Made by a program: the position numbers and the translations under genes. From the IMG/VR virus record IMGVR_UViG_3300044695_002920, positions 1-57,808 of that record: 57,808 bases of DNA; one strand, given 5' to 3'. Numbering within the stretch: position 1 is the stretch's first letter; the number at the start of each line of letters is the position of its first letter. The DNA is from a virus. Lineage: Duplodnaviria > Caudoviricetes. Below, one piece after another: positions 17,827-54,832 of the stretch. Under the pieces are notes generated by a model. The model searched no databases. It was given only the letters and a program-made list of their open reading frames with translations, and was not told where the DNA came from.

Positions 17827-18255
17827 TCAGATGAAGGCCTTGATGCCGAGCGGGTCGCCCGTCACCTTGCCGATCAGATCGAGGTCGTTGAAGATTACCA
17901 GCAGCGCCTCACCAGCGCCGTCGGCGGTTTTGACGGTCCAGCGATCGCCGCCATACTTGGGCACGCGGACGAAGTCGCCCGGCTCGCACCAGCTCCCTTC
18001 GGGCCAATGCTCCATGGTAGTACGGTTCTTGAATGCCAGTTCTCCCACGCGGACCACCTTGGCGATCTGCGTGTTCCACGCGTCCGTTTCACGCGTCTCC
18101 GTGGTCAGGATGATCCCGCCCTTGGTCTTCTGCTTTGGCGTGCGTATCTGTACCAGTACGCGGCTGCCAAACGGCTGTACGCCCGGATCGCAAGGCGGAA
18201 ACGCCTCGTCCTCACTGTCGTAGCCAAACTCAACTTTGTTAGCTAATTCAATCAT
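17827..18255 (-). CDS. groES: Co-chaperonin GroES (Cpn10)-like protein
   Basis: PFGSRVLV...KTKGGIIL...AKVVRVG...GDFV..PKYGG. Confidence 0.85.
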   Translation of the reverse strand: MIELANKVEFGYDSEDEAFPPCDPGVQPFGSRVLVQIRTPKQKTKGGIILTTETRETDAWNTQIAKVVRVGELAFKNRTTMEHWPEGSWCEPGDFVRVPKYGGDRWTVKTADGAGEALLVIFNDLDLIGKVTGDPLGIKAFI

Positions 18256-40055: not shown

Positions 40056-41413
40056 AGTTCACCCCGCACGACTACCAGCGCGAGGCCATGGACCACATCT
40101 ACAGGACGCCACGCTGCGCCCTGTGGATGCCCATGGGCGGCGGTAAGACGGTGACCACCCTCACGGCGCTAGACACCCTCGACTTCGTAGAGGACGTCTT
40201 CCCGGTGCTGGTGCTGGCACCGCTGCGCGTCGCGCGGTCGACATGGCCTGACGAGGTGGCGAAGTGGCAGCACCTCGCGCACCTGCGCGTCAGTGTCATC
40301 ACCGGCAGCGCCAAGGAGCGGGCTGCGGCCCTGCGTAACGTCGCAGACATATACACGATGAACTACGACAACCTCGTCTGGCTGCGCGAGACGCTGGGCG
40401 ACGAGTGGCCGTTCAAGACGGTGGTCGCGGACGAGTTCACGCGCCTCAAGTCCTTCAGGCTGCGTCAGGGAGGCTCCAGAGCCGCTGCGCTGGGTAAGGT
40501 GGCCCACACGCGCGTCAGCCGCTTCATCGGCCTCACAGGCACGCCTGCGCCCAACGGCGTGAAGGATCTGTGGGGGCAGACGTGGTTCCTCGATCAGGGG
40601 GCACGCCTCGGGCGCACCTTCAGCGCCTTCGAGCAGCGCTGGTTCCGCAAGGGCTATGACGGCTACAGCCTCGTGCCATACGCGCATACACAGCGTGAGG
40701 TCGAAGAGGCGCTGAAGGACATCTGCCTCACCGTGCAAGCCCTATCCGTCGACGAGCCCAACACGCTGCCGATCTACATCGACCTGCCGAAGAAGGCGCG
40801 CAAGGCGTATGACGCCATGGAGGAGGAGATGTACGCCATGCTCGCCGAGGGTGAGATCGAGGCGGCCAACGCGGCGGTGCGCACGCAGAAGTGCTTGCAG
40901 CTCGCCAACGGCGCGGCGTACACGGATGACGAGGGGTCGTGGGAGGAAGTGCATGACGCAAAGCTCGACGCGCTGGAGAGCATCATCGAGGAGGCTAACG
41001 GAGCGCCTGTGCTTGTGGCGTATAACTTCAAGCACGATCTCGCGCGACTACAGGCTCGTTTCCGTAAAGGTCGGGTGTTGGACGCTGACCCTGATACGAT
41101 CAGGCAGTGGAACGCCGGTCGGATCCAGCTACTATTCGCTCACCCTGCGTCGGCAGGGCACGGCCTCAACCTCGCCGACGGCGGGAACATCCTCGCCTTC
41201 TTCGGTGTGAACTGGAACCTCGAAGAGCATATGCAGATCATCGAGCGTATCGGGCCGATGCGCCAGAAGCAGGCGGGCTATGACCGGCCGGTCATGGTCT
41301 ATCCGATCCTCGCCCGCGACACGATCGACGACGTCGTCATGGACCGGCTGGGCGGCAAGAAGAGCGTACAGGAGGCGTTGTTGGACGCCATGAAATCAAG
41401 GAGACAGAAATGA
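40052..41413 (+). CDS. SNF2-like SF2 helicase
   Basis: MGGGKT, ADEF, LTGTP, SAGHGLNL, QIIERI. Confidence 0.93.
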   Translation: MKFTPHDYQREAMDHIYRTPRCALWMPMGGGKTVTTLTALDTLDFVEDVFPVLVLAPLRVARSTWPDEVAKWQHLAHLRVSVITGSAKERAAALRNVADIYTMNYDNLVWLRETLGDEWPFKTVVADEFTRLKSFRLRQGGSRAAALGKVAHTRVSRFIGLTGTPAPNGVKDLWGQTWFLDQGARLGRTFSAFEQRWFRKGYDGYSLVPYAHTQREVEEALKDICLTVQALSVDEPNTLPIYIDLPKKARKAYDAMEEEMYAMLAEGEIEAANAAVRTQKCLQLANGAAYTDDEGSWEEVHDAKLDALESIIEEANGAPVLVAYNFKHDLARLQARFRKGRVLDADPDTIRQWNAGRIQLLFAHPASAGHGLNLADGGNILAFFGVNWNLEEHMQIIERIGPMRQKQAGYDRPVMVYPILARDTIDDVVMDRLGGKKSVQEALLDAMKSRRQK

Positions 41414-41628
41414 CAAGACTACTGACGCTTATGGACCCCGAAGAGTGCCCAGACACGGATATGTACCGCGAGCTGTTGTGGTTCGAAACCGTATGCCGGA
41501 TCAAGCATATCAGACACACAACGGAAGAAGAGGTGCGTTCGTTTCTGCGTAACGAGCGGGGCCGCCCCGACCTAGCCGACGCGTTCTCTACTTCTTATCT
41601 TTTTCCAGAAGACTTTCAAGAAACCTGA
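41410..41628 (+). CDS. Hypothetical protein
   Basis: AGGAG SD, ATGA coupling; overlaps the convergent late gene by 41 nt. Confidence 0.6.
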   Translation: MTRLLTLMDPEECPDTDMYRELLWFETVCRIKHIRHTTEEEVRSFLRNERGRPDLADAFSTSYLFPEDFQET

Positions 41629-43015
41629 GTGTCTTGTAGTCAAGGACGCCACCTTGCGGCTTCAGTTGCATGGCACGCAAAGGTGACTTTGTGCCGGGCT
41701 GAACGCCTACGGGGAAGTCAAACGGGGTTTCGTATTTAAGAGCCGCCATGACGTCAGGGGATAGACCGAGAGCGCCAATGTTTTCTTTCAACCGCCCCAC
41801 CCCACGACCGGGGATCGAGTAGTTGTAGGACGCGTGGGACGAAGGCGATGCGCCGAACCTTGGGTCGATAATACCGACATTGCGGAGCGTTGTCAGCGGA
41901 GTGTTCATCTGATCGAGGTCGGTCGCAGCGTATATTGCTTCCCCTTCCCCAAGACCCCCGCGATTGCGGTATTTGTCCATCAATGAGTTCAAAGCGCCGC
42001 GCGCCTTTCCGGTGACGGTCATGAACATTTCAGCGCTGTCGGGGTCTTCAAACCCACGCCAGTTTGGCAAGATTTCCTTGATGCCAGCGGCTAGTGCTTT
42101 GCGATCCGCGCCACCCATCGCCGCGTCGGCGTAGCTGTACTGGATGCCACGCGGCATGTGCGAGAACTTTACCGCCTTCGGCCCCATCGTCCACGGCATG
42201 TACAGGACGTCTTTGCCTGTCATCTGCTGTAGCTGATCCGCAAGCTCTACGTGCCGTTCAGCAGGGCCGCGCTCGGACGCCCAGACAGAGCCGGGGTTGT
42301 CGAACATATAGTCTTGGCCGCCACGGCGACTGAACGGGACGCGGAACATTACATCGTTGATCGCGGTGATGTCGTCACCCGCCGCCGCAAGGTCAGACAT
42401 GGACGTGATGTACGGGTAGCCTTCGTAATCAAAGATGCTGACCTCTGGTGCGGGATCGGTAATGCGCGGGGCTAGATCTACCTTAAGGTTAGCGATCTTG
42501 CCCAGTTCGCCTTTACGGTTTTCGATGCGTGGGTCTGTCGCCACGTCGGCGGGGCGCACTGAGTAGGGGCTAGGCGCTTTGGTGTTTACGTTTGGCGTGT
42601 CAGATCCCGACAGGCGTTGCGCAGCCACGCGCCACTCTGCCAGCGGTGCGTCTGCTGGGATCATGCCTTCGAGCCTGCGAGCGATATCGGAGCCGAACTC
42701 AAGCGCGACTTCGTGGATGGGGTTTGCAATACCCTTAACGATAGGTTTTGCTTTGGGCTTGGGAGCCTTCTTTACGGCCTTTTTCTCTGCGGCATCAGGC
42801 TTCGCAGCCAACGGCTTCGCAGCAGGCGGTTTCGCAGCCAACGGCTTCTGCTTCGGTGCTTTCTTCCTCGGCACCGTTAGCGAGGGTAAGTCTAGAACGT
42901 CGCGCAGTGGCTTCTCGATAATGTCGGGAATGTAGTCCGAGCCGCTTCTGACGGCGCTTCTTAGGCCACTCTCAATAATCCGAGTTGGGCTTGGTTTGCG
43001 GGATCTGCCTGACAC
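41588..43015 (-). CDS. Putative virion cargo protein B (shared N-terminal leader plus unknown globular domain)
   Basis: Last gene of the ejection operon; first 62 aa are 82% identical to those of 43020-44258. Confidence 0.8.
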   Translation of the reverse strand: MSGRSRKPSPTRIIESGLRSAVRSGSDYIPDIIEKPLRDVLDLPSLTVPRKKAPKQKPLAAKPPAAKPLAAKPDAAEKKAVKKAPKPKAKPIVKGIANPIHEVALEFGSDIARRLEGMIPADAPLAEWRVAAQRLSGSDTPNVNTKAPSPYSVRPADVATDPRIENRKGELGKIANLKVDLAPRITDPAPEVSIFDYEGYPYITSMSDLAAAGDDITAINDVMFRVPFSRRGGQDYMFDNPGSVWASERGPAERHVELADQLQQMTGKDVLYMPWTMGPKAVKFSHMPRGIQYSYADAAMGGADRKALAAGIKEILPNWRGFEDPDSAEMFMTVTGKARGALNSLMDKYRNRGGLGEGEAIYAATDLDQMNTPLTTLRNVGIIDPRFGASPSSHASYNYSIPGRGVGRLKENIGALGLSPDVMAALKYETPFDFPVGVQPGTKSPLRAMQLKPQGGVLDYKTLRFLESLLEKDKK

Positions 43016-43019
43016 GGTG

Positions 43020-44258
43020 TTACCTCCGGTTTCTGTCTACACGCCCGCCAATAGCGAAGCCCTTCATTGCTTTCACCACATCAGAGTGCGTAGTGACTTC
43101 GTCCCCAGCTTTATCCCAAATGGCGTGATGCGCGAGATGTTGATAGTAGGGCCGTAGCTCTTCTGGCAAAGCAAAGTCGAGAGCCTCTTGTCTGGCGGAA
43201 AGCCGCTCCACCCCTTCAACACCTCCGAGACCGCCACGACGGGCGATGTATTTTGAGGCCTCTTTTGTCGGGCGGCCGGTGTTCAGGATTATCTGGCGGG
43301 CATCAAGGGTTGGTTGGTCACCTCGGCCAAGAAGAGAAGCTAAGAAACCGGATTTACTAGGGCCAATACCTTTGACATCCTTCGTAAACACCCTCCAATC
43401 TGAGGGGGTGCTTGCCATCTCGCGACCTGCCGCAACGAGATCCGACACTTGGGATTGTTGGCCGGGGAGGTTCAGCGCAGCCCATTCGAGGGCGTTGCGC
43501 AGATCGTTCTGTTTCCCAAATGGCTTCATCTGCGCGACGGCGTCTCCGATAGCGTTATCAGACAGCCGCCCGTATTGTGCGGCATCAAGATACGCCTGAC
43601 CTGCAGGTGTCCCGAGCCACTCACCAAATGCGCCTTCTGGCCGCACCTTGCCTGTGACATCAACAGGGAGATCAAGACCTGCGCGGCGTAGGTTCTCTGC
43701 GTCTGTAGCCTGCCGCTGGATGCTTGCGCGGGTGATAGTAAACGCTTTGATAAGATCGCGCGGTGTTAATCCTTGCCCTGCAGCGCGGGCTGCCTGTTCT
43801 TCCATGAAACGACCAAAGTCGATCACATGTGGCGGGATTTCAGACATACCGCCCAGTTTCTCGTAAACTTCCGGCAGGCCAGCCCAATTCCACTCGGGGT
43901 TAACCGCCGCCACAGGGTCTACGTACTCCGCGACGGTGCGAGGGGGCGGCATAACCTGAGCAATCTGCTTTTCTTTTACCGCAGGACTGGAGGGTTTAGT
44001 TGTTGCTGGCAACGCCTTTACGACGGGTTTCTTGCGAGTGACGTTTGTCTCAGGCGCTGGGGTTGGCGTGGTCTTCGCGGCCAACGACTTTTGCTTAGTG
44101 GCAGCCTTCCTCGGCACCGCCAGATCAGGCATGCTCAGAACGTCACGCAGTGGCTTCTCGATGACATCGGGAATGTAATCCGAACCGCTTCTGATGGCGC
44201 TTCTCAAACCGCTCTCGATGATGCGAGTTGGGCTTGGTTTGCGGGGTCTGCTTGACAC
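43020..44258 (-). CDS. Putative virion cargo protein A with HhH-GPD (EndoIII-like) glycosylase domain
   Basis: VKGIGPSKSGFLASLLGRGDQPTLD; C-terminal FAIGGRV. Confidence 0.7.
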   Translation of the reverse strand: MSSRPRKPSPTRIIESGLRSAIRSGSDYIPDVIEKPLRDVLSMPDLAVPRKAATKQKSLAAKTTPTPAPETNVTRKKPVVKALPATTKPSSPAVKEKQIAQVMPPPRTVAEYVDPVAAVNPEWNWAGLPEVYEKLGGMSEIPPHVIDFGRFMEEQAARAAGQGLTPRDLIKAFTITRASIQRQATDAENLRRAGLDLPVDVTGKVRPEGAFGEWLGTPAGQAYLDAAQYGRLSDNAIGDAVAQMKPFGKQNDLRNALEWAALNLPGQQSQVSDLVAAGREMASTPSDWRVFTKDVKGIGPSKSGFLASLLGRGDQPTLDARQIILNTGRPTKEASKYIARRGGLGGVEGVERLSARQEALDFALPEELRPYYQHLAHHAIWDKAGDEVTTHSDVVKAMKGFAIGGRVDRNRR

Positions 44259-44262
44259 GGTG

Positions 44263-47200
44263 TTACCTCCGCATTTGCTTCACTGCGTAGCGGACAGGCC
44301 GCGCCGCAAAATTTATAGCCGCCTGACCGCGTCGCGTGTTCGCAAGCCTCTTGCCAGCCGCACCTGCACCCATCAGGATGGCAAAGTCTGCGGCGTTGCG
44401 CGGAGCATCTGCACGAATGGCCGACATCCGGTCGGATCCGGCCACCTTCGGATCGGGTTTAGCCTGCCCTGCCGAATACAATGCGCCCTGACCGAGAGCG
44501 TCGACAGCCCCCGCACCGAGGCGAGCGAGGCGACCAGCATTGCCCACTACCCGTGCGCCAGCGAGCGACGGGGCCAGAAGCGAGCCACCCAGCATGCCAG
44601 CACCCTCAAGCACCATGGCGGTGTTCGGGTTGGCCTTAGCATAGCGCTCCTGCAGCATGCGCAGGCGGGTTACCTCGTTTTCGTATGCGTTCGGATCCCT
44701 AGACGCGAGCGAGCGCAGCTTGGCCTCGATCTCGTCACCGAAACCGAAGGTCAGGCCCTGCCCCACTGTGCGGGCTGCGTTCGCGTAGTCATAGCCGCGG
44801 CGGGGCCGTCCGCCCTTCTTGAGCTGCTGCACGGAGCCGCCACGGGCCAGCTCCACGACGTTGCCTGCCTGATCCACGCGGGTGCCGTCAGGCAGCACAT
44901 ACGTGTCCGTATCGGCGTCGTACGCGCCTTCTGTGCCGAGGTCGATAGAGCCGCCCTGCGGCGCTGGGCTATTGACCGGCACCATATCCTCAAGCGGCAC
45001 ACCGTCTCCGCGTGTCAGCTCGACAACTGGGCTGCCGGGCATGCTGGCCTGCGGCGTGCGGTATATCTGCGGCAACTCTTGCGGGGCTGCGACTTCTTCC
45101 TGCCCCTGCGCGGCTTGAAGGCCCTGCGCACCAGCCATAAGGCTCTGGATGGTCATCCGGTTGTCACCGTACTTGGTGTTCAGGTAGTCAAAGGCGTCGG
45201 CGATCGGCTGGCCGCGCTGCGCCATGTTGGAAAACGCAGCGCCGATCGTCCTGTCGACCGCGCCCATGCCTTGCCCAGCTTTGTAAGCGGCCTCGCCCAT
45301 CAGGCGCGGAGACGTCAACGGCAGAGTTACCAGCGACGCGCCCGAGGTTGGGATGGCTGCCATCAAGCTACCGCCAGCACTTATCTGGCCAAGGCCGCGC
45401 GGTGTTTTTGCCGATAGCTGCTGCCCCGCCAGAGCGGGGAACAGCTCAGTCGCGCCTGCTGCTTCTAGCTCGCGGCCTAGCTCTACGCGTCGGCCATAGT
45501 TGGTGTTGGCATTGTTGCGCAGCATGGACTGCAGCTTGCGGAGCGAGGTATCGACCTGCGCGCCCGGCTTGAGCGAGAGCGTGCCTTCGATGTCGCGAAG
45601 TTTCTCCATGCCAAACTCGTAGTCCGCCATCACCTTGGCGTAGGCGGGCACCTGATCGTTGATGACCTTCTTGACCTCGCCATACACCCCCGACGCAATC
45701 GACGACGCGCGGCGGTTGTTCTCAGTCGCAAAGGCATTCGACAGCTCACCCAGACGCTGCTTCAGAGCGTCCATGCCTTCCGGCGTATGGAACTGATCAG
45801 GGGTGTCACCGTACCAATCGTCGACAATCGCCTTGGCTTTCTCGTACACGGCCGCCGCAGACGGGTTTACAACTTTGTTGCCCCTGAAAGCCCGGTCACG
45901 CAGCTTATCTAGGCGGTCGTAAATAGGCTGGAAGTCTAGGATGGTTTTGTCTTTTTTGACGTCTACCATGCCCGAACGGTAAGCCTCAGATGCCTGTGAG
46001 CGAATGTTCCCCACCGCCTCTTTGGCTTGCGTGAGGACAGTATCCAGATCTGCGCCGCCGCGCATGTTTTCGAGGAAGGTCTTAGCCCCTTCGCCCCCCA
46101 TGCGCCCAGCCTTAGCGGCCTCCTTCAGGGCGTCCGCTCCCGCGCCAGTGGTGAGCCCGACAGCCTGCGCCGATCCCTCTTGGATGGCCTTACCGGTGAG
46201 CGCCAACGCCTTAAACGGCGCGGAGGCAACGCGGGCAGTCAAACGGACGGGATCCAGCGTCTCGCTCAGTTTGGTGGCCTTTGCGATGTTACCCGCCTTA
46301 CCGAGGGCACCAGCGACTACAGTCGCGTCAGAAAGCACCTCAAAGGGGCGCTCTGCTAGGGCTGTCAGGAAACCGTTCTCCGTGCCGTACTGCGTGGCGT
46401 AGTGGTTGCCAAGGGCGGCGAGTGTCTCGCCGTCAGTGATGCCGAGGGCGTCGCCAGCCAGCTTGCCGATGCTGGTCACCGTCTCAGGCAGGTCTACGGT
46501 GAGGGCCTTGCCCGTTTCCGCAAAACTTTTGACGGCACTCATGGGCAGGTTAGCGACACCGGAGAGGGCCGCTTCCGGCCACGTAAGACCGCCGCGCGCA
46601 GCCTCGTCAATCTGCTCGTAGCTGAAACCGCCCCACTGCAGGCCCTTTTCCATGTTCTGGACAGTCTCGCGGCCCTTCGCAAGCGCGTCAGCCTTGAACG
46701 CATCATCGGGCTGGACACCGGACTGCACCGCACCAGCCGTTACGAGGTCTGCATACGCCTGCGGCGTAAGCTCTCCGCTTTGGTAAAGCGCGCGTATGCG
46801 GCCCGCAGTCTCTTCAGGCAGACGGTAGCCTTGGGTCTTGGTGGGGTCTATCCTCTGCAGCAGATCCGCCTCGACCTCATTGATGCCGCGCGGTTTCATA
46901 CCCAACTTGAGCAGTTCCGACGGCGAGGTGCCCCCGGCCATGCCAGAAATGAGCAAGTCGAGCATGGCGTACTTGGTTTCGATCGTCCTATCACTGTCGC
47001 CCGCTTGCGGGATGTAGGACATGAAGACCGCCATTTCCTTGTCGCTGTCGCCTTCTTTTGCGGACTGCGCGACGAGTGGTCGGATGAGCGACAGCATGGT
47101 GTCATTGGCTTTTGTAAAGCTCTCGAATGCCGGTATGGCGGGAACGACGCCGCCGAGTGTCGGTTTGTCGAAATACTCGGCGTAACCAAAAAGGCGAGAG

Positions 47201-47547
47201 GCGGGCTGCCCTTTGATGTCCCGCTTATACAGGCCGATGTTATTCAACATCTGCGCGCGCACGACGGCGGCGCGCTGCTCTATCCCGCTCCTCTTCGCCT
47301 CTAGAGCAATTTCCGTAGCGGTCTGCTTGGGGCCCTCTTGGGCGTCCTTTTCAGCTTTAGCGGCGTCGGCGATAGCTTTACGCGCGTCGGCTTCCGCCTT
47401 AGTGATCTGGGCCTTAACCGTCGCCTCACTCACGGCAGCGCCTGCCTGACCCCTGCGGATGTCGACCTCGCGTTTTGTTGCCTCCTGCGTAGCAGGGCCA
47501 CTCCACGTTGCGCCGGAAAGATCAATCTTTTCGGGTCCAGCCATCAC
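44263..47547 (-). CDS. Large DNA-ejection/internal virion protein
   Basis: 1094 aa, helical and A/G-rich; GQGLTFGFGDEIEA motif; operon position. Confidence 0.75.
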   Translation of the reverse strand: MMAGPEKIDLSGATWSGPATQEATKREVDIRRGQAGAAVSEATVKAQITKAEADARKAIADAAKAEKDAQEGPKQTATEIALEAKRSGIEQRAAVVRAQMLNNIGLYKRDIKGQPASRLFGYAEYFDKPTLGGVVPAIPAFESFTKANDTMLSLIRPLVAQSAKEGDSDKEMAVFMSYIPQAGDSDRTIETKYAMLDLLISGMAGGTSPSELLKLGMKPRGINEVEADLLQRIDPTKTQGYRLPEETAGRIRALYQSGELTPQAYADLVTAGAVQSGVQPDDAFKADALAKGRETVQNMEKGLQWGGFSYEQIDEAARGGLTWPEAALSGVANLPMSAVKSFAETGKALTVDLPETVTSIGKLAGDALGITDGETLAALGNHYATQYGTENGFLTALAERPFEVLSDATVVAGALGKAGNIAKATKLSETLDPVRLTARVASAPFKALALTGKAIQEGSAQAVGLTTGAGADALKEAAKAGRMGGEGAKTFLENMRGGADLDTVLTQAKEAVGNIRSQASEAYRSGMVDVKKDKTILDFQPIYDRLDKLRDRAFRGNKVVNPSAAAVYEKAKAIVDDWYGDTPDQFHTPEGMDALKQRLGELSNAFATENNRRASSIASGVYGEVKKVINDQVPAYAKVMADYEFGMEKLRDIEGTLSLKPGAQVDTSLRKLQSMLRNNANTNYGRRVELGRELEAAGATELFPALAGQQLSAKTPRGLGQISAGGSLMAAIPTSGASLVTLPLTSPRLMGEAAYKAGQGMGAVDRTIGAAFSNMAQRGQPIADAFDYLNTKYGDNRMTIQSLMAGAQGLQAAQGQEEVAAPQELPQIYRTPQASMPGSPVVELTRGDGVPLEDMVPVNSPAPQGGSIDLGTEGAYDADTDTYVLPDGTRVDQAGNVVELARGGSVQQLKKGGRPRRGYDYANAARTVGQGLTFGFGDEIEAKLRSLASRDPNAYENEVTRLRMLQERYAKANPNTAMVLEGAGMLGGSLLAPSLAGARVVGNAGRLARLGAGAVDALGQGALYSAGQAKPDPKVAGSDRMSAIRADAPRNAADFAILMGAGAAGKRLANTRRGQAAINFAARPVRYAVKQMRR

Positions 47548-48233
47548 ATCGCTCCTTTGCTAGGGACAGTTCCAATTTTCATGCCGGTAGCAGGATCGTA
47601 CACATCTTGCGAGCCGTCTGGATTGGTGAAACGCAAACTCCCGTCTGTATACTGCCTCAAGGTAATACCCGACTTCGTGGTGACAGTCTGGCGTGTTGGT
47701 TTTGGTTCGTCGGGAGACACGTAGGACATCATGTTTTCCGACCAGTTCTGCGTAGGTTTCTTCAGCAACGACCCAGCAGTCCTCACGAGGTCTGCAGCCG
47801 TCCGAGCGTTCTGCGTGCCGAGGCCCGCGCGCCGCATGCCGTAGGCCTCGTCGAATTTCGCGAGCTGCTCCTCGCGCGATAAGGCCGCCTTGCGCTGTGC
47901 CTCGCTGATGTCGCCGAAGGCACCGCTGATCTTGCCGATCGTGCCCGCGATGCCGCGATGCTCCCTCGGGGCCAGCAGCGCCTTAGACAGGGCGAACAGT
48001 TGCTCGGACGTAGACGGCCCTTGGTTGCGCGCAATGATATTGGCGCGGCCCTTCTCGTAAAACTCCGCGAGGGTCTTCTTCTCTGCCTCTTGCGCCGCCA
48101 TCTGCTGGTTGAGCACGGCCTGCAGAACAGACGCGGGATCGTCGCGCAGTTTGCCGAAGTCGATGCCGCCCATGGCACCAAGAGCGCCCAGCTTGCCGGT
48201 GTCGACGGGTACTTCTTCTTCTTCCTCGTACAT
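47544..48233 (-). CDS. Internal virion/ejection protein
   Basis: Helical 229-aa ORF; ATG directly after the upstream stop. Confidence 0.7.
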   Translation of the reverse strand: MYEEEEEVPVDTGKLGALGAMGGIDFGKLRDDPASVLQAVLNQQMAAQEAEKKTLAEFYEKGRANIIARNQGPSTSEQLFALSKALLAPREHRGIAGTIGKISGAFGDISEAQRKAALSREEQLAKFDEAYGMRRAGLGTQNARTAADLVRTAGSLLKKPTQNWSENMMSYVSPDEPKPTRQTVTTKSGITLRQYTDGSLRFTNPDGSQDVYDPATGMKIGTVPSKGAM

Positions 48234-48234
48234 G

Positions 48235-50292
48235 TCAGATCCCCAATAGCTTGCTGAGAGCGGATCCAGCCTGCGCGCTTGATAGTATGCCGCCAAGACC
48301 AGTCAGCGCGCCGCCGATAGTCTCTGCGGTGCTCGGTCTCAGTTGCGGCTGGTAGCCCATAGGCACGATCCCCTCGTCGCGGCTGGCCACCGGTACGCCC
48401 GATTTGACGCCGCCGAAGGTCTGCAGCATCGCGTTGATCTGCTCCTGCGGGTAGCCCTGCTGGCGGAGGAAGTCGGCGTAGGCGACGTCGAGGTTCTTCT
48501 GCGCCTGCTCTTGCTGGATGCCGCCGACTTGGCCAAGCGCGCCTGCGCCAGTGAGGCCGAGGCGCTGGGCGTCCGCGCCAAGAGTGGCGAGCTGCTGTGC
48601 TCCGGCGAGGTTGCGAGTGAGATCCTGACCAGCGAAGCCACCGGCAGTCTGGCCCATCTGCGAGAGCAGACGCTGCTGCTCCTGCGTGATGCCAGCACCG
48701 GAAGCGCCGAGGGCCGCCAACTGCTGCGCGGCGCTGAGCGCGCCCTGCTGACCCGTACCGGCCAGCGTGCCGAAGCGGCCACCGATGTCGACCAGAGCCT
48801 GCTGCTGCTGCGCCATGAGGTTGCCGCCGATCTGGCCCAGCGCACCCGTCTGCTGCCCCGCCTGCGCGAGGGCACGCTGCTGCTCGGTGCCGAGCTGCCC
48901 AGCCTGCGCGCCGATGTTGGTGAGGGCCTGCTGCTGCTGCGTCGTGAGGCCGCCAAGCTGGTTGGCGATCGCGGCCTGCTGGTTGGCAGCCTCGAGCAGC
49001 GCCTGCTGCTGCTGGCCGCCCAGTACGCCGCGCTGCGTGCCGATGCTGGTGAGAGCCTGCTGTTGCTGCCCTGTAAGCTGGCCGAGCTGCGTGCCCACGG
49101 CGGCCTGCTGCTGCGCGGCCTCGAGCAGGGCCTGCTGTTGCTGCGAGCCGAGTTGGCCTGCAGTCCCAGCGAGCTGAGCCTGCCGCGCGAGGTCGGCTGC
49201 AGCCGCAGCCTGCGCCTCGCCATAGCCTCGGCTGAGTAGCTCACCCTGCTGCCTAACTGTTGCCTCCTGAACGTCGCGCAGGGCGCGAGCCGTGTCGGTC
49301 ATCATGCCCGAGGGCGTGCCGGATCCCGGCTGACGGCCACCAGCGCCGAGCTGGCCTGCGGCGATGTAGCGGCCCTCAATATCGGGCAATAGGTTCTCGC
49401 GCAGGTTGCGAGCGCCCAGCTCACCGACCTGCCTGACGACCTGCTCGGTGTAGGGGTTCATGTACTGGCTGATGTTGGCGACGCTCGTCTGGCCTGCCTG
49501 CCCGAGGTACGGTGCGGCAGCCGCGAGGCCGCCAGCGGCAGTGCCCTGCTGGATCGTGCCGAGGGCCTGCTGGTAGGCGGGCGAGGCGGCGCTGACACTG
49601 CTCAGGCGCTCGGCGGCGGAGAGCGTGGGCTCCGCGGACTGCATGCCCAGAGCCTGCGTGCCCTGCGCGGCGGTGCCCAGCGCCTGCTGGAAGCCCGGCA
49701 GGGCGGCGCTGACACCTGAGAGCTGGGCCGCTGAGCCGAGGTAGGGCTGCGCCGCCTGCTGGCCGAGAGCCTGCGTGCTCTGTTGCGCGAACTGCTCGGC
49801 CTGACTGAGGTAGGGGTGCGCGAGGTCGAAGCCGGACATGCCCGCAGCCTGCTGCAGATAGGGCTGCGCGGCTCCTACGACGTTGGTCTGTCCGGCCTGC
49901 GTCGTGAGGTTGCGCGCCGCGTCGTAGTCGCTGGCGGCGACGCCCATGGGGTTAAGCTGCTGGGCCTGAGTGAAGTAGGGCTGGGCGGCTGCCAGAGAGC
50001 CCGGAGCGCCCAAGGCACCCTGCGTCGCCTGCGTGGCAGCCGTGAGGGCAGGCTGATAGGCTCCGGCCGCCTGACCAGTCTGCGCGAAGGCCTGCTGCTG
50101 CGTGGGCGAGAACTCAGCGACGCGCGGACCCTGATAGGTCTGCAGCGGCTGCGCAGCCAACGCCTGCTGGTTGGAGAGCAACTGCATGGCGTAGTTGGTG
50201 TACCACTCAGGCAACACGCTCTCGCTGATCTTCGACGTGTATGTCGAGCCAGCGGGCAGCTCCCCGTTGTTGAGAAAATCACTGAGTGCCAT
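48235..50292 (-). CDS. DNA-transfer/pilot protein, Q/A/G-rich helical repeats
   Basis: YQGPRVAEFSPTQ, YMNPY, QQGYP motifs; C-terminal hydrophobic Gly-rich helix. Confidence 0.75.
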   Translation of the reverse strand: MALSDFLNNGELPAGSTYTSKISESVLPEWYTNYAMQLLSNQQALAAQPLQTYQGPRVAEFSPTQQQAFAQTGQAAGAYQPALTAATQATQGALGAPGSLAAAQPYFTQAQQLNPMGVAASDYDAARNLTTQAGQTNVVGAAQPYLQQAAGMSGFDLAHPYLSQAEQFAQQSTQALGQQAAQPYLGSAAQLSGVSAALPGFQQALGTAAQGTQALGMQSAEPTLSAAERLSSVSAASPAYQQALGTIQQGTAAGGLAAAAPYLGQAGQTSVANISQYMNPYTEQVVRQVGELGARNLRENLLPDIEGRYIAAGQLGAGGRQPGSGTPSGMMTDTARALRDVQEATVRQQGELLSRGYGEAQAAAAADLARQAQLAGTAGQLGSQQQQALLEAAQQQAAVGTQLGQLTGQQQQALTSIGTQRGVLGGQQQQALLEAANQQAAIANQLGGLTTQQQQALTNIGAQAGQLGTEQQRALAQAGQQTGALGQIGGNLMAQQQQALVDIGGRFGTLAGTGQQGALSAAQQLAALGASGAGITQEQQRLLSQMGQTAGGFAGQDLTRNLAGAQQLATLGADAQRLGLTGAGALGQVGGIQQEQAQKNLDVAYADFLRQQGYPQEQINAMLQTFGGVKSGVPVASRDEGIVPMGYQPQLRPSTAETIGGALTGLGGILSSAQAGSALSKLLGI

Positions 50293-53200
50293 TACAAACG
50301 TCCTCCGGCCATATAGTGCTCAGGCCTCTTCGCATTTTCACTGAACTCACCGCGAGCGAGCTTGCGGCCCTTCTGTTTCCTTACGTTCACGCGGAACTTG
50401 TCAAGCATCTGCGCGCCCGCCTTGTTCGAACCGTTGCCCAGAAGCGCAACTGTTTCGGCGTCTATAACATATTCGCCGTCAGAAAGCAGCGCCGGTATTT
50501 TATCGTCGCGACCGTCTCCAGCCCCCTCGACGGCAAAGCCGCCTCGGGCGTAGCCGGTGTAGGCTTTGCTGGTGTTGCGCGCGCCCTGCGGCACGTAATT
50601 GAAGAAGCTCTGCTCCGGCCCGTAGCCATAGCGGTAATAGTCGATCGGCGCGCTAAGGCCCCGAGCCGCAAGGTCGCTGGGCGAGCGTGCGCCGCTTCCA
50701 CCTCCGCCGACACCGAGGCCGGGCAGGTTGGCTGGCGGGAGCTTCGCGCCAAAGATCGGGTTGAGCCTGCCCATGGTGCCCGGCACGTTGAACTTCTGGC
50801 TGCCGCCACCACCGCTGCCAGCGAGGCCGCCCAGTAGGCTGCTCAGCAAGCCCGCGATGCGCAGATAGTCGGCGATGTCTTTGAGGGTCGTGTCCTTCTT
50901 GGCTTCGGGCTGCGTCGCGCCATCGCGAGCGCCGGTGAAGCCCAAATCAGTGCGCGACGTAACCATGGGCGGCGTCACAGGTATGGACGTCGGTTGCTCA
51001 GGTACAGTCGTCTTATTGCCAATTACATTTATGCCCTCCTCGTAAGTGACAGGAGGCAGGCCGCCCGATGTTATAGGCAGCGTAACTGGGACAGATGGCG
51101 GCAGCGGCGGCGCATTGTTGCCCGTAACGACGATCTGGTCAGGATCTGTCGGCTGTTGAGCCGCATCGAGTGGCTGCGGTATCGGTACGGGCTGCGGCGA
51201 CGGCGCGAATATCGATGGCAGCGGAACAGACGGCATCACCTCACCACCTGTGACGACGATATCCCTGTTTTCGGGTGCCGCCTCGGGTTGCGCGGGTTGC
51301 TGAACCACACCGGCATCGAGCGGCTGCGGTATCGGTATGGGTTCCGGCGACGGTGTGAATATCGGCGCAGGGATGGGTATGCTCGGCGTCACATTGCCGC
51401 CCGACACAACGATCTCGCTCTCTTCAGGAGCTGCGGGTTGCTGCGGCGCGCCCGCATCGAGCGGCTGCGGTATCGGTATAGGTTCCGGTGACGGTGTGAA
51501 TATCGGCGCGAGGTTGACGCTTGGTGCTGCATTGCCGCCCGACACGACGATCTCGCCCCCGAGGGTATCTGCTTTAGCGTCGCCAGCCACATTCGAGCCG
51601 CTGCCAGCGCTAATCGGCGTGCTCGGACTTACGCCGCCGGTAGTGGTTATGGTGTTGGTCGCCGCATCATAGACACCTGATCCCCCCGGCAGTGTGATGC
51701 CTAACTCCTCGGCCACGCCCGGTATGACGTACGATGCCGCACCAGAGGCCAAGCCGCCGAGCAGTGAGTTCTTTAGGTTCTGGCCCGTCGCAAGACCGCC
51801 AGCAGTCGCGCCGAGACCTGTGCCGACCGCGCTGGCGGCCTTTGTTGCGCCCAGAGCAGGGCCCAGTATAGTGCCGCCTGCCGTCGTGAGGCCGCCCATG
51901 ACAGCGCCCTTAAGCGGGTCGCCGCCAGATAGCGCATTACCTGCTGCGCCTGCCGCAGCCGCCGCTGCGATCTGGGCAGGGACGCTCAGACCGCCGGTCA
52001 GGACCGCTGTGGCGATGGGAAGCGCGAAGCCTGCAATCTTACCGAACACACCGAGGTCGCTGCCCTTCGGGTCATCGTCGGCGATGCGCGACCACTGGCC
52101 GTCCTGATCCGAGCGCTCAAGATACCAGTCAGCCTTGGTGCCACCCTCGGCCGACAGGCGCTGCGCTGCGGCATAGGCGTCGCGGAGGCCCTGTTCGCCC
52201 ACGCCGCTGGTGAGAATGGCATTCTGGCCCCGCTCGTTGACGAGGCGGTAGGTGGCGTTGGGGTCGAGGCTTACGAAGGCGGTGGGGTTGGCTTTCGTCT
52301 TCGCGGGCTTACCGGCGTTGGTGACGAAATAGTAACCCTGCTGTCCGTCGTTCGTGACGAAGTCCAAGCCCGGCGTCGCGCTGGGCTTGCTGTACTGTAT
52401 CACGGTCTCCGGCGTCGGGCGCACCGTCGGTCGCGGGCCTGTGATGGCGTAATCCTCTGGCCCCATCAGGGGGTCAGTCATGTCGCCTACCGGCGCGTTG
52501 TAGTCGGCAGGAACGACGGCGTTCGGCATGCCTATCTGCTCGCTGTACACAGGCTCTACAGCGTAGGGTGCGCCTACCTGCTCAGCCGGTGCGCTGGGCA
52601 CTGGCTCCATGCTTACAGGCGCGCCGACTTGCTCACCGGGCATTGGGTAATTCACCAGAGCGGAGTAGTCAGGCGCGACGTAATCAGACACGCCGTAATC
52701 CAGTGGCGCTGGCTCTACGGCGTAGGGCGAGCCTGTCTGCTCGGCCGGTGCGCTGGGCGCTGGTTCTACGGCGTAGGGCGAGCCTGCCTGCTCAGTATAG
52801 GCTGGTTCGACGTAGGGGTTGTAGGCAGGCTCCACGCCGCTGGGCGCTTGCTCGCTGTACACCGGCTCCGAAGCATAAGGCGAGCCTACAGGCTCGTTAT
52901 ACACCGACGGCATGGATACCGAAGGCGTCGCGACGTAATCAGACGCGCCGTAGTCCAGCAGCGAGGGGTACTCGACTGGTGGCGTGTACGCGGGCTCCGA
53001 GTACTGCGGAGGCGTGTAGATGGGCTCGTTATAGACAGGCGGCGCATACTCGACTGGCGGCGTGTAAGCGGGCTCCGAGTACTGCGGGGCCGGTTCGTTG
53101 TAGACAGGCTCGTAGTACTCCACCGGAGACGTATACTCGGTCGGAGGTGTGTAGGCGGGCGGAGTGTACTCGACGGGCGGCGTGTAGGCGGGTTCGCTGT

Positions 53201-54599
53201 ACACGGGCGGCGTGTATACCGGCTCAGGCGCTGTGTAGACAGGCTCCGAGTACTGCGGCGGCATCGCGTAGTCGACCGGCGGGGTGTACTCAACCGGCGG
53301 CGTGTATACCGGCTCGTTGTACACGGGCTCGTTGTACACGGGCTCGTTGTACACGGGCGGAGTGTATACCGGCTCGTTGTACACGGGCGGGGTGTATACC
53401 GGCTCAGGTGCTGTGTAGACAGGCTCCACGTACTCAACAGGAGACGTGTATTCGACCGGCGGCGTGTATTCGACCGGCGGCGTGTAGACGGGCTCCGCGT
53501 AGGTGGGCGGAGTGTACTCGACGGGCGGAGTATAAACAGGCTCGTTGTACACGGGCGGAGTGTAGACAGGCTCAGGCGCTGTGTACACCGGCTCGTTGTA
53601 CACAGGCTCGTTGTACACGGGCTCGTTATACACCGGCTCGTTATACACGGGCGGCGTGTACTCAACCGGAGGTGTGTAAACAGGCTCGTTATACACGGGC
53701 GGAGTGTACTCGACTGGCGGCGTGTACTCGACTGGCGGCGTGTAAGCAGGCTCGGGCGCTGTGTAGACAGGCTCGTTGTATACCGGAGGCGTATACTCGA
53801 CTGGGGGAGTGTATACCGGCTCGCTGTAGGTAGGTGCCGTGTATACCGGCTCAGGCGCTGTGTATACCGGCTCAGGCGCTGTGTAGACAGGCTCGTTGTA
53901 TACTGGCGGCGTGTACTCGACAGGAGGCGTGTAGACAGGCTCGGCGCTGACAGGCGCGCTGGTCTGTGCAGGCTCGCCGTACATCGACTGGAGGTACTGC
54001 AGGTAGGCGAGCATCGACGCGTAATCGAATGCCACAGGTGTTGGCATTTCAGGTGGCGAGCTTACCGGCGGTGGGGGCGGAGGTGGTGTGTACGCGGGCT
54101 CCGGTGCTGTATAGACAGGCTCGTTATACACGGGCGGAGTGTAGACAGGCTCGTTGTACACGGGCGGCGTGTAGACAGGCTCGTTGTATGCAGGCGGATT
54201 GTATACCGGCTCGTTGTACACGGGTGGGGTGTAGACAGGCTCGGGCGCTGTGTAGACAGGCTCGTTGTATACCGGAGGCGTGTACACGGGCGGGGTGTAT
54301 ACCGGCTCGTTGTACATCGGCGGCGGAGGTGCGGAGTAGATAGGCTCGTTGTACACGGGCGGGGTGTATACCGGCTCGTTGTATACCGGAGGCGCGTATA
54401 CCGGCTCTGAGTACATCGGCGGATTGTAGACAGGCTCCGAGTACATCGGCGGGCTGTAGACAGGCTCGTTGTAGATCGGCGGGCTGTAGACAGGCTCGTT
54501 GTAGATCGGCGGCGTGTAGTTCCACATGCCGTAGTCAGCCATACCGTAGTCAGGCGAATACATGAAGTCTGATAAGCCGGGGATATAGTATTCGTCCAT
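50292..54599 (-). CDS. Ejection protein with Tyr/Pro repeats, Gly-zipper hydrophobic region and TonB-box-like repeats (1435 aa)
   Basis: TGATG coupling sets the start at 54599; C-terminal GDGRDDKIPALLSDGEYV motif. Confidence 0.8.
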   Translation of the reverse strand: MDEYYIPGLSDFMYSPDYGMADYGMWNYTPPIYNEPVYSPPIYNEPVYSPPMYSEPVYNPPMYSEPVYAPPVYNEPVYTPPVYNEPIYSAPPPPMYNEPVYTPPVYTPPVYNEPVYTAPEPVYTPPVYNEPVYNPPAYNEPVYTPPVYNEPVYTPPVYNEPVYTAPEPAYTPPPPPPPVSSPPEMPTPVAFDYASMLAYLQYLQSMYGEPAQTSAPVSAEPVYTPPVEYTPPVYNEPVYTAPEPVYTAPEPVYTAPTYSEPVYTPPVEYTPPVYNEPVYTAPEPAYTPPVEYTPPVEYTPPVYNEPVYTPPVEYTPPVYNEPVYNEPVYNEPVYNEPVYTAPEPVYTPPVYNEPVYTPPVEYTPPTYAEPVYTPPVEYTPPVEYTSPVEYVEPVYTAPEPVYTPPVYNEPVYTPPVYNEPVYNEPVYNEPVYTPPVEYTPPVDYAMPPQYSEPVYTAPEPVYTPPVYSEPAYTPPVEYTPPAYTPPTEYTSPVEYYEPVYNEPAPQYSEPAYTPPVEYAPPVYNEPIYTPPQYSEPAYTPPVEYPSLLDYGASDYVATPSVSMPSVYNEPVGSPYASEPVYSEQAPSGVEPAYNPYVEPAYTEQAGSPYAVEPAPSAPAEQTGSPYAVEPAPLDYGVSDYVAPDYSALVNYPMPGEQVGAPVSMEPVPSAPAEQVGAPYAVEPVYSEQIGMPNAVVPADYNAPVGDMTDPLMGPEDYAITGPRPTVRPTPETVIQYSKPSATPGLDFVTNDGQQGYYFVTNAGKPAKTKANPTAFVSLDPNATYRLVNERGQNAILTSGVGEQGLRDAYAAAQRLSAEGGTKADWYLERSDQDGQWSRIADDDPKGSDLGVFGKIAGFALPIATAVLTGGLSVPAQIAAAAAAGAAGNALSGGDPLKGAVMGGLTTAGGTILGPALGATKAASAVGTGLGATAGGLATGQNLKNSLLGGLASGAASYVIPGVAEELGITLPGGSGVYDAATNTITTTGGVSPSTPISAGSGSNVAGDAKADTLGGEIVVSGGNAAPSVNLAPIFTPSPEPIPIPQPLDAGAPQQPAAPEESEIVVSGGNVTPSIPIPAPIFTPSPEPIPIPQPLDAGVVQQPAQPEAAPENRDIVVTGGEVMPSVPLPSIFAPSPQPVPIPQPLDAAQQPTDPDQIVVTGNNAPPLPPSVPVTLPITSGGLPPVTYEEGINVIGNKTTVPEQPTSIPVTPPMVTSRTDLGFTGARDGATQPEAKKDTTLKDIADYLRIAGLLSSLLGGLAGSGGGGSQKFNVPGTMGRLNPIFGAKLPPANLPGLGVGGGGSGARSPSDLAARGLSAPIDYYRYGYGPEQSFFNYVPQGARNTSKAYTGYARGGFAVEGAGDGRDDKIPALLSDGEYVIDAETVALLGNGSNKAGAQMLDKFRVNVRKQKGRKLARGEFSENAKRPEHYMAGGRL
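52560..54525 (-). repeat. Coding tandem repeat of 15-21-bp units (YNEPV/YTPPV/YTAPEPV)
   Basis: Recurrent GGCTCGTTGTACACGGGCGG-type units on the plus strand. Confidence 0.95.
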
Positions 54600-54832
54600 C
54601 AACCTGTACTTTCGAGCATCGGATAAGCGCGCATTGCCCATTCGCGCCAGTCCGAGAACTGGTAAGGATCAGGAAGGGTGCGCTGCGTAAAAGGAGACGC
54701 GCGTACAAGCCCCGTTGCCCAATCGCGCCACGCAGCTTCTTCGGGAGGCCTCCCGAATGACCACGCATCGCCTACGACCAGTATAACCGAAGAAGCCCAG
54801 TCTTGCCAAGACATTCCGAGGGGATTTATCAT
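54599..54832 (-). CDS. Small Trp-rich conserved tail-module protein
   Basis: WQDWA..WRDWA..PDPYQFSDWREWA; coupled at both ends. Confidence 0.75.
   Translation of the reverse strand: MINPLGMSWQDWASSVILVVGDAWSFGRPPEEAAWRDWATGLVRASPFTQRTLPDPYQFSDWREWAMRAYPMLESTG

Follow-up and report, generated by a model that had tools for sequence, protein, structure and literature searches.

Why do two neighbouring genes at the end of a phage late operon begin with the same protein sequence and continue into different domains? We address this question for two genes, here called A and B, in the window, a stretch of 57,808 nucleotides that is the complete, circularly permuted genome (57.8 kb) of an uncultured lake podovirus. 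The first-pass annotation of this DNA had proposed an address tag for packaging or injection, followed by exchangeable effector C-termini. Our analysis finds a real modular leader-cargo system, related to known capsid-targeting and polyvalent-effector themes, in which the leader is, on balance, probably a docking tag that loads cargo into the particle for injection with the DNA.

Two leader copies at the end of the late operon

The late operon, on the minus strand, ends with a block of internal virion (ejection) protein genes, then gene A (43020..44258; a 412-aa open reading frame with an N-terminus kept in relatives) and gene B (41588..43015; a 475-aa open reading frame), which is the last gene of the operon and converges with an SNF2 helicase gene at 40052-41413. 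Directly upstream of gene A lies the gene of a 1094-aa protein (44263..47547, minus strand), whose central part is homologous by tblastn (30% identity over 39% of the query) to Sm_phiM5_31, annotated as 'putative internal virion protein; detected in phage particle proteome'. A and B close the block after this homologue of a phiM5 internal virion protein, in agreement with their annotation as the last two genes of the ejection operon. The three preceding genes (250, 685 and 1449 aa; 47544..54641, minus strand) are syntenic with Caulobacter phage GB2A and phiM5 and probably encode internal virion or ejection proteins; the 1449-aa protein gives weak tape-measure-like PHROG matches. The adaptor of this podovirus is of the SU10 type, and its head module includes a GroES-like gene. 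Genes A and B are thus encoded among the late virion genes of a portal-terminase phage, a setting that serves as a criterion for polyvalent proteins. Intergenic gaps at the gene A/gene B end of the block are 4 nt, and promoter-like or terminator-like sites within 41000-48500 are not commoner than in shuffled sequence. Both junctions are spanned, with 0 differences, by contigs of other lake-water runs (for A/B, X2 record 1 and X3 record 11; for the 1094-aa gene and gene A, X3 record 12 and X4 record 19), indicating that the gene arrangement is not an artefact of a single assembly.

Both proteins have a three-part architecture of leader, linker and cargo domain. In a direct comparison (BLASTP of A against B), residues 1-62 align with 51/62 identities (E=3e-28) and no significant match follows, and the two cargo profiles align with an hhalign probability of 0.1%; the 62-aa leader and the unrelated domains behind it are therefore as first described. 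The leader core, which we take as approximately 48 residues (1-48) with the motif DYIPD..E.PLR, occupies 44115..44258 in gene A and 42872..43015 in gene B (both minus strand; 40/48 identical by sequence comparison), and these are the only two copies in the genome. The linkers are K/P/A-rich and cationic, as had been noted. By composition, that of gene A (approximately residues 49-108; 43935..44114, minus strand) has one SLAAK motif and a net charge of +9, computed over the script-delimited residues 40-111, and that of gene B (approximately residues 49-94; 42734..42871, minus strand) has two PLAAK motifs, a net charge of +13 and 67% K/P/A. Across leader proteins this tether measures 45-60 residues and usually contains one or more (P/S)LA(A/V)K motifs. 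The leader DNA is identical at 149/186 nt, and 17 of the 28 differing codons are synonymous, so that the reported synonymous differences between the copies are real. The comparison of substitution rates that had been suggested gives a dS of 0.76, a dN of 0.12 and a dN/dS of 0.16, indicating that the two leader copies are old and under long-term purifying selection.

The identical 19-nt junction before each gene was also recovered. The 19-mer CGGAGGTAACACCGTGTCA occurs exactly twice, at 44253-44271 (44253..44271) and 43010-43028 (43010..43028), both on the minus strand, with an expected count of 0 (100 shuffles). It consists of the final two codons of the preceding gene with its stop (R R stop, ending the 1094-aa gene at the first site and gene A at the second), GGAGG, a 4-nt spacer, the GTG start of gene A or gene B, respectively, and the second codon. 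Because an identical run of 22 nt lies inside the leader itself, the 19-mer is not exceptional within the repeat; a Shine-Dalgarno and start context overlapping the stop of the gene before it is enough to account for the identity. An analogous junction is present at other loci.

Distribution of the leader

We detected the leader in 14 related viral contigs and in eight more metagenome contigs (22 in total), and its position was always N-terminal. All seven matches in a word-indexed search begin at the N-terminus, and a search of 1.84 billion representatives returned 13 matches, of which eight are credible and start at residues 1-8; of the remaining five, three showed no domain above 8 bits and the two that did are repeat proteins. 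The genomic position is equally constant. In all 14 viral loci the leader gene or genes end the late operon and converge with helicase or polymerase genes, and in every locus that shows the gene immediately before them, that gene encodes a 1060-1210-aa protein. The 1094-aa protein occupies the same position in all related loci. Two adjacent leader genes are present in 10 of the 14 loci (one is seen in the other 4), and the metagenome contigs contribute four further tandem pairs. The leader subtype tracks the phage lineage, not the cargo, which is the behaviour expected of a tag matched to its own virion.

Such conservation bears on another alternative, in which the shared N-terminus is a functionless remnant, left over when a segment was partly duplicated in tandem or copied by gene conversion. 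The block of homology begins 14 nt before the start codon and takes in the ribosome-binding site, as duplicated DNA would, but the substitution rates given above speak for selection over a long period, and a leader kept across 22 contigs and at least 11 cargo types, always at the N-terminus, contradicts a remnant. We consider this explanation extremely improbable.

Outside this set of contigs the leader gave 0 credible matches in 50,697 isolate phage records (best E approximately 7) and was not found in 185,579 species genomes. The closest isolates are the Caulobacter phages RW, KcrB, RLK and GB2A (portal 60% identical), which have the same synteny and are devoid of leader genes, indicating that the leader genes are accessory. 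In position and synteny the locus resembles the internal virion modules of podoviruses (T7 gp14-16, P22 gp7/16/20 and phiM5 gp28-31); it differs in that genes A and B are accessory additions with no homologue in phiM5 or the Caulobacter phages. The 1094-aa protein ends in a conserved C-terminal domain of approximately 215 aa (44266..44910, minus strand) that all 11 leader-bearing genomes of alignment A5 have and that is absent from the GB2A and phiM5 homologues. The same domain is found in 11 of 51 B-gene loci without the DYIPD leader, and is therefore not specific to this leader class; it is missing in loci with other common leaders (for example, L032, L039 and L059).

Cargo domains and their exchange

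Each of the two genes has one cargo domain. Cargo domain A (residues 109-412; 43023..43934, minus strand) belongs to a large unannotated viral family (alignment A2) with at least 150 homologues at E<=1e-3 and no sequence match in Pfam, PHROG, NCBIfam or PDB. Its conserved block, GIGP.KSGF..LLGRGD.PTLDARQ, has what we take to be a resemblance to the HhH-GPD motif of DNA glycosylases; a protein atlas gave leads only (DUF7178, 0.87; Ogg-HhH, 0.86), Pfam scans of 79 cargo A members contained no HhH-GPD-type match, and cargo A aligned to the DUF7178-type leader proteins with an hhalign probability of 0.2%. Cargo domain B (residues 95-475; 41591..42733, minus strand; alignment A3), with the motifs GGQDYMF and FSHMPRG, is a very widespread unannotated viral domain, with at least 180 homologues in the protein search, 483 viral-contig stretches and no family or PDB match. 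Among the matches listed, the DYIPD leader is carried by 3/119 A homologues and 10/120 B homologues. Some A homologues are fused to ART-PolyVal (P0136, 46.7 bits), LPD23 (P0114, 69.5 bits) or DUF6321; in P0175 a single polypeptide runs from the end part of an A domain into a B domain, and a B homologue (P0247) has an ART match of 28.0 bits, below the threshold of 31.2 bits.

In distant phages the B gene adjoins terminase and portal genes; rather than a variable effector, B might thus be a conserved component of assembly or of the virion. In another reading, A and B would both belong to the structure of the ejection conduit and would not be effectors, with the leader as the interface that stacks subunits onto the internal core, and cargo variation would reflect adaptation to host envelopes. 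Their place at the end of the internal-protein block and the spread of B (483 viral stretches, near terminase and portal in distant phages) suit a core virion function, and podovirus internal virion protein genes are described as highly mosaic in a passage of PMC10386132. However, the genes are entirely missing from the nearest relatives in culture, a locus may have one or two genes with this leader (in L039, three genes share another class), and enzymatic effector domains (ART and PBECR5) occupy the same slot. A conduit role for A and B is therefore unlikely in our estimation.

The first-pass annotation had named a leader never fused to other domains as evidence against its proposal; searching the leader alone and cataloguing what follows, we found it on at least 11 cargo types across 52 leader proteins. 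With domains called at scores above the Pfam gathering thresholds, four leader proteins contain ART-PolyVal (56.9, 36.8, 86.9 and 62.0 bits), one a PBECR5 nuclease (53.4 bits) and one DUF7178, and a PcfJ-like domain is present in all seven tested members of one leader-protein family; L006:8799 combines ART-PolyVal with a weak ParB_N match. Of the proposed exchangeable effector C-termini, what stands is that the leader is separable and the C-termini are exchangeable, several of the cargo types coming from the polyvalent effector repertoire.

Exchange is visible in pairwise comparisons. Cargo B is identical to that of P0140 at 365/381 residues (96%), whereas the leaders agree at 19/48 (40%); against P0149 the cargo is identical at 347/381 residues and the N-terminus is unrelated (3/48). 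Conversely, the gene B leader matches the L004 leader at 41/48 residues (85%), and the L004 cargo is of the DUF7178 type and unrelated. Cargo A shares 270/304 residues with P0021, the N-terminus of which is unrelated. Recombination between leader and cargo is recent and falls at the module borders. In other lineages, other common leaders are attached to the same cargoes, and other leader classes occur on adjacent cargo genes (L032, 17/20 residues; L059, 11/20; L039; L090). L046 has an A gene followed by a B gene with a common leader (14/20 residues), and L039 has three genes with one common leader class; in the control comparison of N-termini, non-adjacent open reading frames match at most at 8/20, in 2/213.

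A conserved N-terminus with variable, recombining C-termini is also what external tail appendages would show, if the leader were their anchor and the C-termini receptor-binding or depolymerase domains. Tail fibres of the T7 type have a conserved N-terminal adaptor, and podoviruses of the SP6/K1-5 type have tandem tailspikes; the place after the internal virion protein genes, at the end of the structural operon and often in tandem, would suit such appendages. The cargoes themselves argue otherwise: ADP-ribosyltransferase, BECR-type nuclease and PcfJ-like domains act on intracellular targets, and no tail-fibre, tailspike or beta-helix family of Pfam or PHROGs is found in A, B or 26 other leader proteins. 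Moreover, a separate tail-fibre gene (approximately 1860 aa, with strong PHROG tail-fibre matches) lies upstream, and the leader is only approximately 48 residues long and followed by a cationic low-complexity stretch. We regard tail appendages as quite improbable.

Candidate role of the leader and related systems

The analogy drawn at first was with T4, whose tag is short and removed by the prohead protease. It holds in that several cargoes of one phage begin with a similar N-terminal peptide (here as pairs in 10 of the 14 related loci), and it is otherwise loose. The present core has approximately 48 residues, as compared with 10-19, and is followed by a long cationic tether; the phage is a podovirus, and the sequences are not similar. 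Scans of the head-module open reading frames with PHROGs and Pfam, which a divergent protease could have escaped, gave no prohead protease, and the only PHROG matches named 'protease' fall on the capsid portion of fused families; a cleaved tag of the T4 kind is thus unsupported. According to the relevant passages of PMC9024508, T4 IPIII has a capsid targeting sequence; IPI, IPII, IPIII and Alt have a similar N-terminal peptide, proposed as a head address (citing Mullaney and Black); and the internal-protein cargo is injected along with the DNA, and foreign proteins can take its place. The same passages report that a reporter reaches the capsid when it carries just the first 30 residues of P1 DarB, and that no N-terminal consensus was found among the Dar proteins (PMC9024508). 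The present leader would resemble the DarB signal (there at most 30 residues) as an N-terminal element for loading a large effector or reporter; unlike the N-termini of the Dar proteins, it is recognizably conserved, both on the different cargoes within a genome and throughout a clade of phages.

The closest parallel in cargo is with the polyvalent proteins, for which Iyer et al. 2017 (PMC5512222), in the part available to us, predict packaging and injection of ART-PolyVal and PBECR-type domains. Common to both are ART-PolyVal, PBECR5 and LPD23 (here in relatives), a late virion-gene context and the prediction that the proteins travel with the DNA. For cargoes A and B themselves there is no match to any Pfam model; the matches to the polyvalent repertoire are in sister leader proteins and A-homologue fusions. 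Polyvalent proteins, as described in that part, have 2-15 domains per polypeptide, whereas the domains here are mostly in separate genes, each with a copy of the common leader. The virion links named there are MuF or portal fusions and the N4 polymerase encapsidation region, and the words 'leader' and 'linker' were absent (0 occurrences) when that paper was searched for them. It also describes MuF polymorphic toxins of temperate phages, in which a conserved N-terminal virion-associated module precedes variable C-terminal effector or toxin domains (PMC5512222). The likeness lies in a constant N-terminal module with variable C-terminal domains; MuF, however, is a large folded head protein domain, and the N-termini of the leader proteins match neither MuF (Phage_Mu_F) nor other Pfam or PHROG families.

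In our proposal the leader would recruit whatever follows it into the assembling particle, either to the internal-protein complex or to the procapsid interior, where A and B would be incorporated through a binding partner of the leader. The basic tether may keep the cargo flexible and possibly associated with DNA. The cargo, including A and B, would then exit the particle together with the DNA and, early in infection, serve host take-over or counter-defence in the cytoplasm. The leader could equally dock a cytoplasmic partner (for example, a common phage or host factor, a chaperone or a protease), the proteins then being non-virion late proteins and the leader an intracellular interaction, oligomerization or regulation module with no role in packaging. 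The GroES-like gene of the head module would be compatible with this, and effector-type cargoes could act late. Yet translational coupling ties the genes to the structural operon, every locus has them at the extreme end of that operon, take-over effectors produced late and not earlier would need packaging to reach the next host, and the same cargo domains are elsewhere fused to domains in virion-gene contexts, as part of PMC5512222 describes. A purely intracellular role therefore seems to us improbable, if still worth weighing.

Returning to a loading tag, we advance a more general version tentatively and think it less probable than its opposite: lineage-coded loading, in which a short leader plus a cationic K/P/A tether would suffice, in freshwater and marine podoviruses of the wider group, to load any downstream domain and have it delivered with the DNA. 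The leaders would fall into five or more sequence classes unrelated to one another, DYIPD..PLR among them, joined to tethers with (P/S)LA(A/V)K motifs, and phages would trade a common pool of effector domains by recombination at the tether; LA(A/V)K may be a common recognition or processing element, with the leader conferring virion specificity.

If the leader is a loading tag, it offers a sequence handle on the proteins that uncultured podoviruses carry into their hosts, which are otherwise very hard to recognize from sequence, and two very large unannotated viral domain families (A and B) become probable injected proteins. The polyvalent repertoire would then be deployable as separate tagged genes and not only as one giant polypeptide, recombination at a disordered tether would be the mechanism of exchange, and a transferable tag of approximately 50 residues would be a simple protein-loading tool for laboratory phage-host pairs. 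Even if the tag does something else, a leader that tracks the phage lineage while its cargo moves freely needs explaining.

Two leader copies and their junction

Genes A (43020-44258, minus strand; 412 aa) and B (41588-43015, minus strand; 475 aa) have 51 of their 62 N-terminal residues in common (E = 3e-28) and match nowhere else, as the first-pass annotation had described; its view that the two cargo domains are unrelated also held, hhalign of the two C-terminal family profiles giving 0.1%. The DNA copies of the leader do differ at synonymous sites (149 of 186 nt are identical, and at 17 of the 28 codons that differ the residue is unchanged), and dN/dS between them, a comparison that the annotation had proposed, is 0.16 at a dS of 0.76. 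These values rule out a fresh duplication as the origin of the copies; the leader pair is an old repeat, maintained by selection on the peptide.

The annotation had also singled out an identical 19-nt junction in front of both genes. The identity is real (two identical occurrences, with 0 expected), but we do not read the junction as a separate element. The 19-mer runs from the 'R R stop' of the preceding gene through GGAGG and a 4-nt spacer to GTG and the second codon; it also marks where the homology block between the copies begins, 14 nt before the start codon, and is shorter than an identical run of 22 nt inside the leader. Related loci have a comparable junction, in which AAGGAAG overlaps TAA and a short spacer leads on to the start codon. 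We read the junction as a probable translational-coupling signal that travels with the leader. Both junctions are bridged by contigs of other runs with 0 differences. At loci L004-L017, many of the proteins encoded just before leader genes have similar C-terminal tails, of the form (F/Y)AV(K/N/Q) plus basic residues. The coding sequence of the tail partly coincides with the ribosome-binding site of the following gene; what is conserved may be the peptide or the RNA signal.

In all 40 leader proteins examined, the core is followed by a cationic stretch rich in K, P, A and T (the tether; net charge +3 to +14). The N-terminal extensions of cargo homologues contain the motif L[AS][AV][KR] more often than composition-preserving shuffles predict (B homologues, 87 observed versus 10.1 +/- 3.1; A homologues, 25 observed versus 5.1 +/- 2.2), an excess that is overstated because many of the sequences are related. 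The motif, which may be a binding or a processing site, does not stand out in the window's other structural proteins.

Distribution of the leader and its cargoes

The leader, whose invariant core is DYIPD, then E, then PLR, was sought on its own and its attached domains were catalogued, as the first-pass annotation had suggested. A word-indexed search of 5.8 billion proteins yielded 80 candidates of 261-832 aa, 7 of them matching at E ≤ 0.01, and an eight-leader profile gave 13 matches at E ≤ 0.001 among 1.84 billion representatives. For 8 of these 13 the aligned part runs from residues 1-8 to about residue 55; the other 5 are long or repetitive (2 with weak repeat-like stretches, 3 without a domain above 8 bits). 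Internal leader copies in the giant proteins P0008, P0011, P0013 and P0019 were rejected, the matches being weak repeat-like stretches. Scans of viral and metagenome contigs gave at least 14 and at least 12 leader loci, respectively, 4 of the latter being repeats of viral loci. The leader has no relative in 185,579 species genomes, hence no prophage or host assignment by this route, no credible match in 50,697 isolate phage records, and no match to Pfam, PHROG or NCBIfam models; a literature search found no published description of it.

Far from never occurring on other domains, the leader is attached to at least 11 cargo types among 52 distinct leader proteins, whose C-terminal parts were clustered. 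The census comprises a B-type family (19 members), a PcfJ-like family (10), two unnamed families (6 and 4), ART-PolyVal (3, plus one separate ART protein), a DUF7178 pair, four full-length singletons (gene A, a PBECR5 protein and two others) and 3 fragments. Matches above the Pfam gathering threshold were obtained for ART-PolyVal (L006:8799, that is, locus and open reading frame position, L010:5571, L020 and L025:5980), for PBECR5 (leader protein P0009), for DUF7178 (leader protein P0005) and for 7 of 7 PcfJ-like family members tested. A ParB-like insert suspected by eye in homologue P0004 was rejected, as P0004 has no Pfam match; the sole ParB_N match is in L006:8799, at a sub-threshold 14.5 bits. 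In PcfJ-like leader proteins (L007, L009, L011, L012 and L014-L016) the tether has a conserved proline-rich element, KALPAPPKPLALPAPGPG, between leader and domain.

Sequence comparisons indicate that the borders between leader and cargo are recombination points. Cargo B is identical to that of homologue P0140 at 365 of 381 positions and the leaders at 19 of 48; it matches P0149 at 347 of 381, and the N-terminus of P0149 is unrelated (3/48). Cargo A agrees with P0021 at 270 of 304 positions, again with an unrelated N-terminus. Conversely, the gene B leader is identical at 41 of 48 positions to that of locus L004, whose cargo is of the DUF7178 type. Leader subtype tracks phage lineage, not cargo. 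Few of the cargo homologues listed have the DYIPD leader (3 of 119 for A, 10 of 120 for B); the rest have different N-termini.

The cargo A and B families

Neither cargo domain has a match in Pfam, PHROGs, NCBIfam or any PDB sequence: PDB searches with the cargo A and cargo B alignments gave nothing at E ≤ 1 but one chance match (E = 0.9), an NCBIfam scan of 15 proteins gave nothing meaningful, and a PHROGs scan of A, B and 12 distant homologues gave no match. The best protein-atlas score for cargo B, 0.76, is at an uninformative level. A conserved block in cargo A has what we take to be an HhH-GPD-like look, with a weak protein-atlas lead alongside. Both domains are widespread, with at least 150 (A) and at least 180 (B) matches among about 8,000 scored candidates, and cargo B is also found in 483 viral-contig stretches. 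Some cargo-A homologues are fused to ART-PolyVal, LPD23 or DUF6321, and P0175 has the end of the A domain followed by the B domain in one protein. In the part of their paper that concerns such domains and contexts, Iyer et al. treat them as polyvalent proteins, predicted to be injected with DNA (PMC5512222).

The motif A/Y-x-G-G-x-V recurs at domain borders in many homologues: as YAGGGLV where domain A of P0175 gives way to domain B, as AIGGRV at the end of gene A, and as ARGGSV before the C-terminal domain (about residue 900) of the 1094-aa protein encoded upstream of gene A. Among the matches listed, MW202675.1 (locus L001; 8968-11664) is the sole phage record from GenBank that has a homologue of cargo A. 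There the domain stands N-terminally in a protein of 898 aa annotated 'type I restriction enzyme', which lacks the leader and is encoded downstream of the portal gene with two further large genes between.

In distant contigs (L062-L109; for example, L062 1539-2762 and L065 2568-3791), a B-type domain lies directly upstream of a putative large terminase gene, itself followed by a portal-sized gene, a context quite unlike that of the window; these proteins have a different N-terminus with a glycine- and alanine-rich hydrophobic stretch. Given how widespread the B domain is, and that distant phages encode it beside terminase genes, it may be a core component of the virion or of its assembly and not a variable effector.

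Genomic position and proposed role of the leader

The record of 57,808 bases is a whole virus (completeness rating 100%) and, although its ends are classed 'linear', a circular permutation of the complete genome, because the two pieces of the minus-strand tail-fibre gene split by the record ends (1-4890 and 57111-57808) match consecutive regions of the same PHROG. The stretch was recovered as identical contigs in 4 further lake-water runs from 4 studies. Its closest cultured relatives are the Caulobacter phages RW, KcrB, RLK and GB2A (portal identity 60%); Roseobacter CRP-901/902 and Pelagibacter HTVC023P/027P are remoter. The minus strand encodes, in order, small and large terminase, portal, a GroES-like protein, capsid (Phage_capsid_4), an SU10-type adaptor, endolysin and tail fibre, then proteins of 593, 1449, 685, 250 and 1094 aa, and finally A and B. 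The plus strand carries the replication module (primase-helicase, DUF2800 exonuclease, SSB, family A polymerase, Mom-like protein and SNF2 helicase).

Several other genes deserve mention. The GroES/Cpn10-like gene (17827-18255, minus strand; 34.8 bits) lies between the portal and capsid genes, and a 'co-chaperonin groeS' gene is annotated in the corresponding region of MW202675.1, whose portal is a distant match (30% identity). A candidate scaffold gene is located at 16875-17798. The Mom-like gene within the replication module (39375-40055, plus strand; Pfam Mom, 82 bits) suggests that the phage DNA is modified. DUF6321 (85 bits) forms the end of a 157-aa protein encoded immediately downstream of the capsid gene (13518-13991, minus strand). 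The domain is also a C-terminal fusion in some cargo-A homologues (P0101, P0118) and terminates many of the larger PHROG families; it may act as a second module for virion association, placed C-terminally. The 1449-aa protein (50292-54641, minus strand) opens with a proline/tyrosine-rich region of about 400-420 residues, made up of near-perfect PPVYNEPVYT-type repeats that score 104 bits against Pfam Extensin_1, just below the cut-off of 105 bits; its resemblance to a tape-measure PHROG is limited to the last 60 or so residues.

At each of the 14 viral loci the late operon ends with one or two leader genes, convergent with helicase and polymerase genes, and wherever the upstream gene is visible they lie directly 3' of one for a 1060-1210-aa protein. 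At least 10 of these loci have two adjacent leader genes and at least 4 have one (at one of these, L008, the contig ends just upstream), and metagenome contigs add at least 4 further tandem pairs, all these counts being lower bounds, in part because contigs are short. This gene order would also fit leader proteins that are tail appendages, but the cargo types do not, and we regard that explanation as very improbable. The window's upstream protein (44263-47547, minus strand) has homologues in phiM5 (Sm_phiM5_31, annotated 'putative internal virion protein; detected in phage particle proteome') and in Caulobacter phage GB2A (the last structural protein). No leader gene follows it in GB2A; leader genes are therefore accessory additions ending the internal-virion-protein block. 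That A and B are themselves subunits of a structural conduit seems quite unlikely.

Genomic position, coupling, cargo type, leaders matched to lineage, and precedent favour reading the leader as a docking tag for virion delivery, the best-supported explanation, which we hold with moderate confidence. On this reading the leader would bring the protein into the particle along with the internal proteins, the basic tether would leave the protein free to move and perhaps bound to DNA, and cargo and genome would be delivered together. The precedents, as far as the relevant sections of PMC9024508 describe them, are the N-terminal signal of P1 DarB and the capsid targeting sequence of T4. No prohead protease is evident in the head-module open reading frames by PHROGs or Pfam. 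We consider it unlikely that the leader is instead a late cytoplasmic module.

If the leader is a docking tag, a candidate partner is the conserved C-terminal domain of the upstream protein, aligned from 11 leader-bearing genomes. Its role as a leader-specific receptor is weakened by its presence in 11 of 51 B-gene loci without the DYIPD leader, and complex prediction between the leader and this domain gave a score of 0.00, which speaks neither for nor against binding. The domain is absent from loci with other shared leaders. Another leader class is common to adjacent cargo genes in five further loci: L032 (17 of 20 leader residues identical), L046 (14 of 20, an A gene then a B gene, as in the window), L059 (11 of 20), L039 (three genes) and L090; the maximum between non-adjacent open reading frames, 8 of 20, was reached in 2 of 213. 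The arrangement in the window is therefore one instance of a wider habit.
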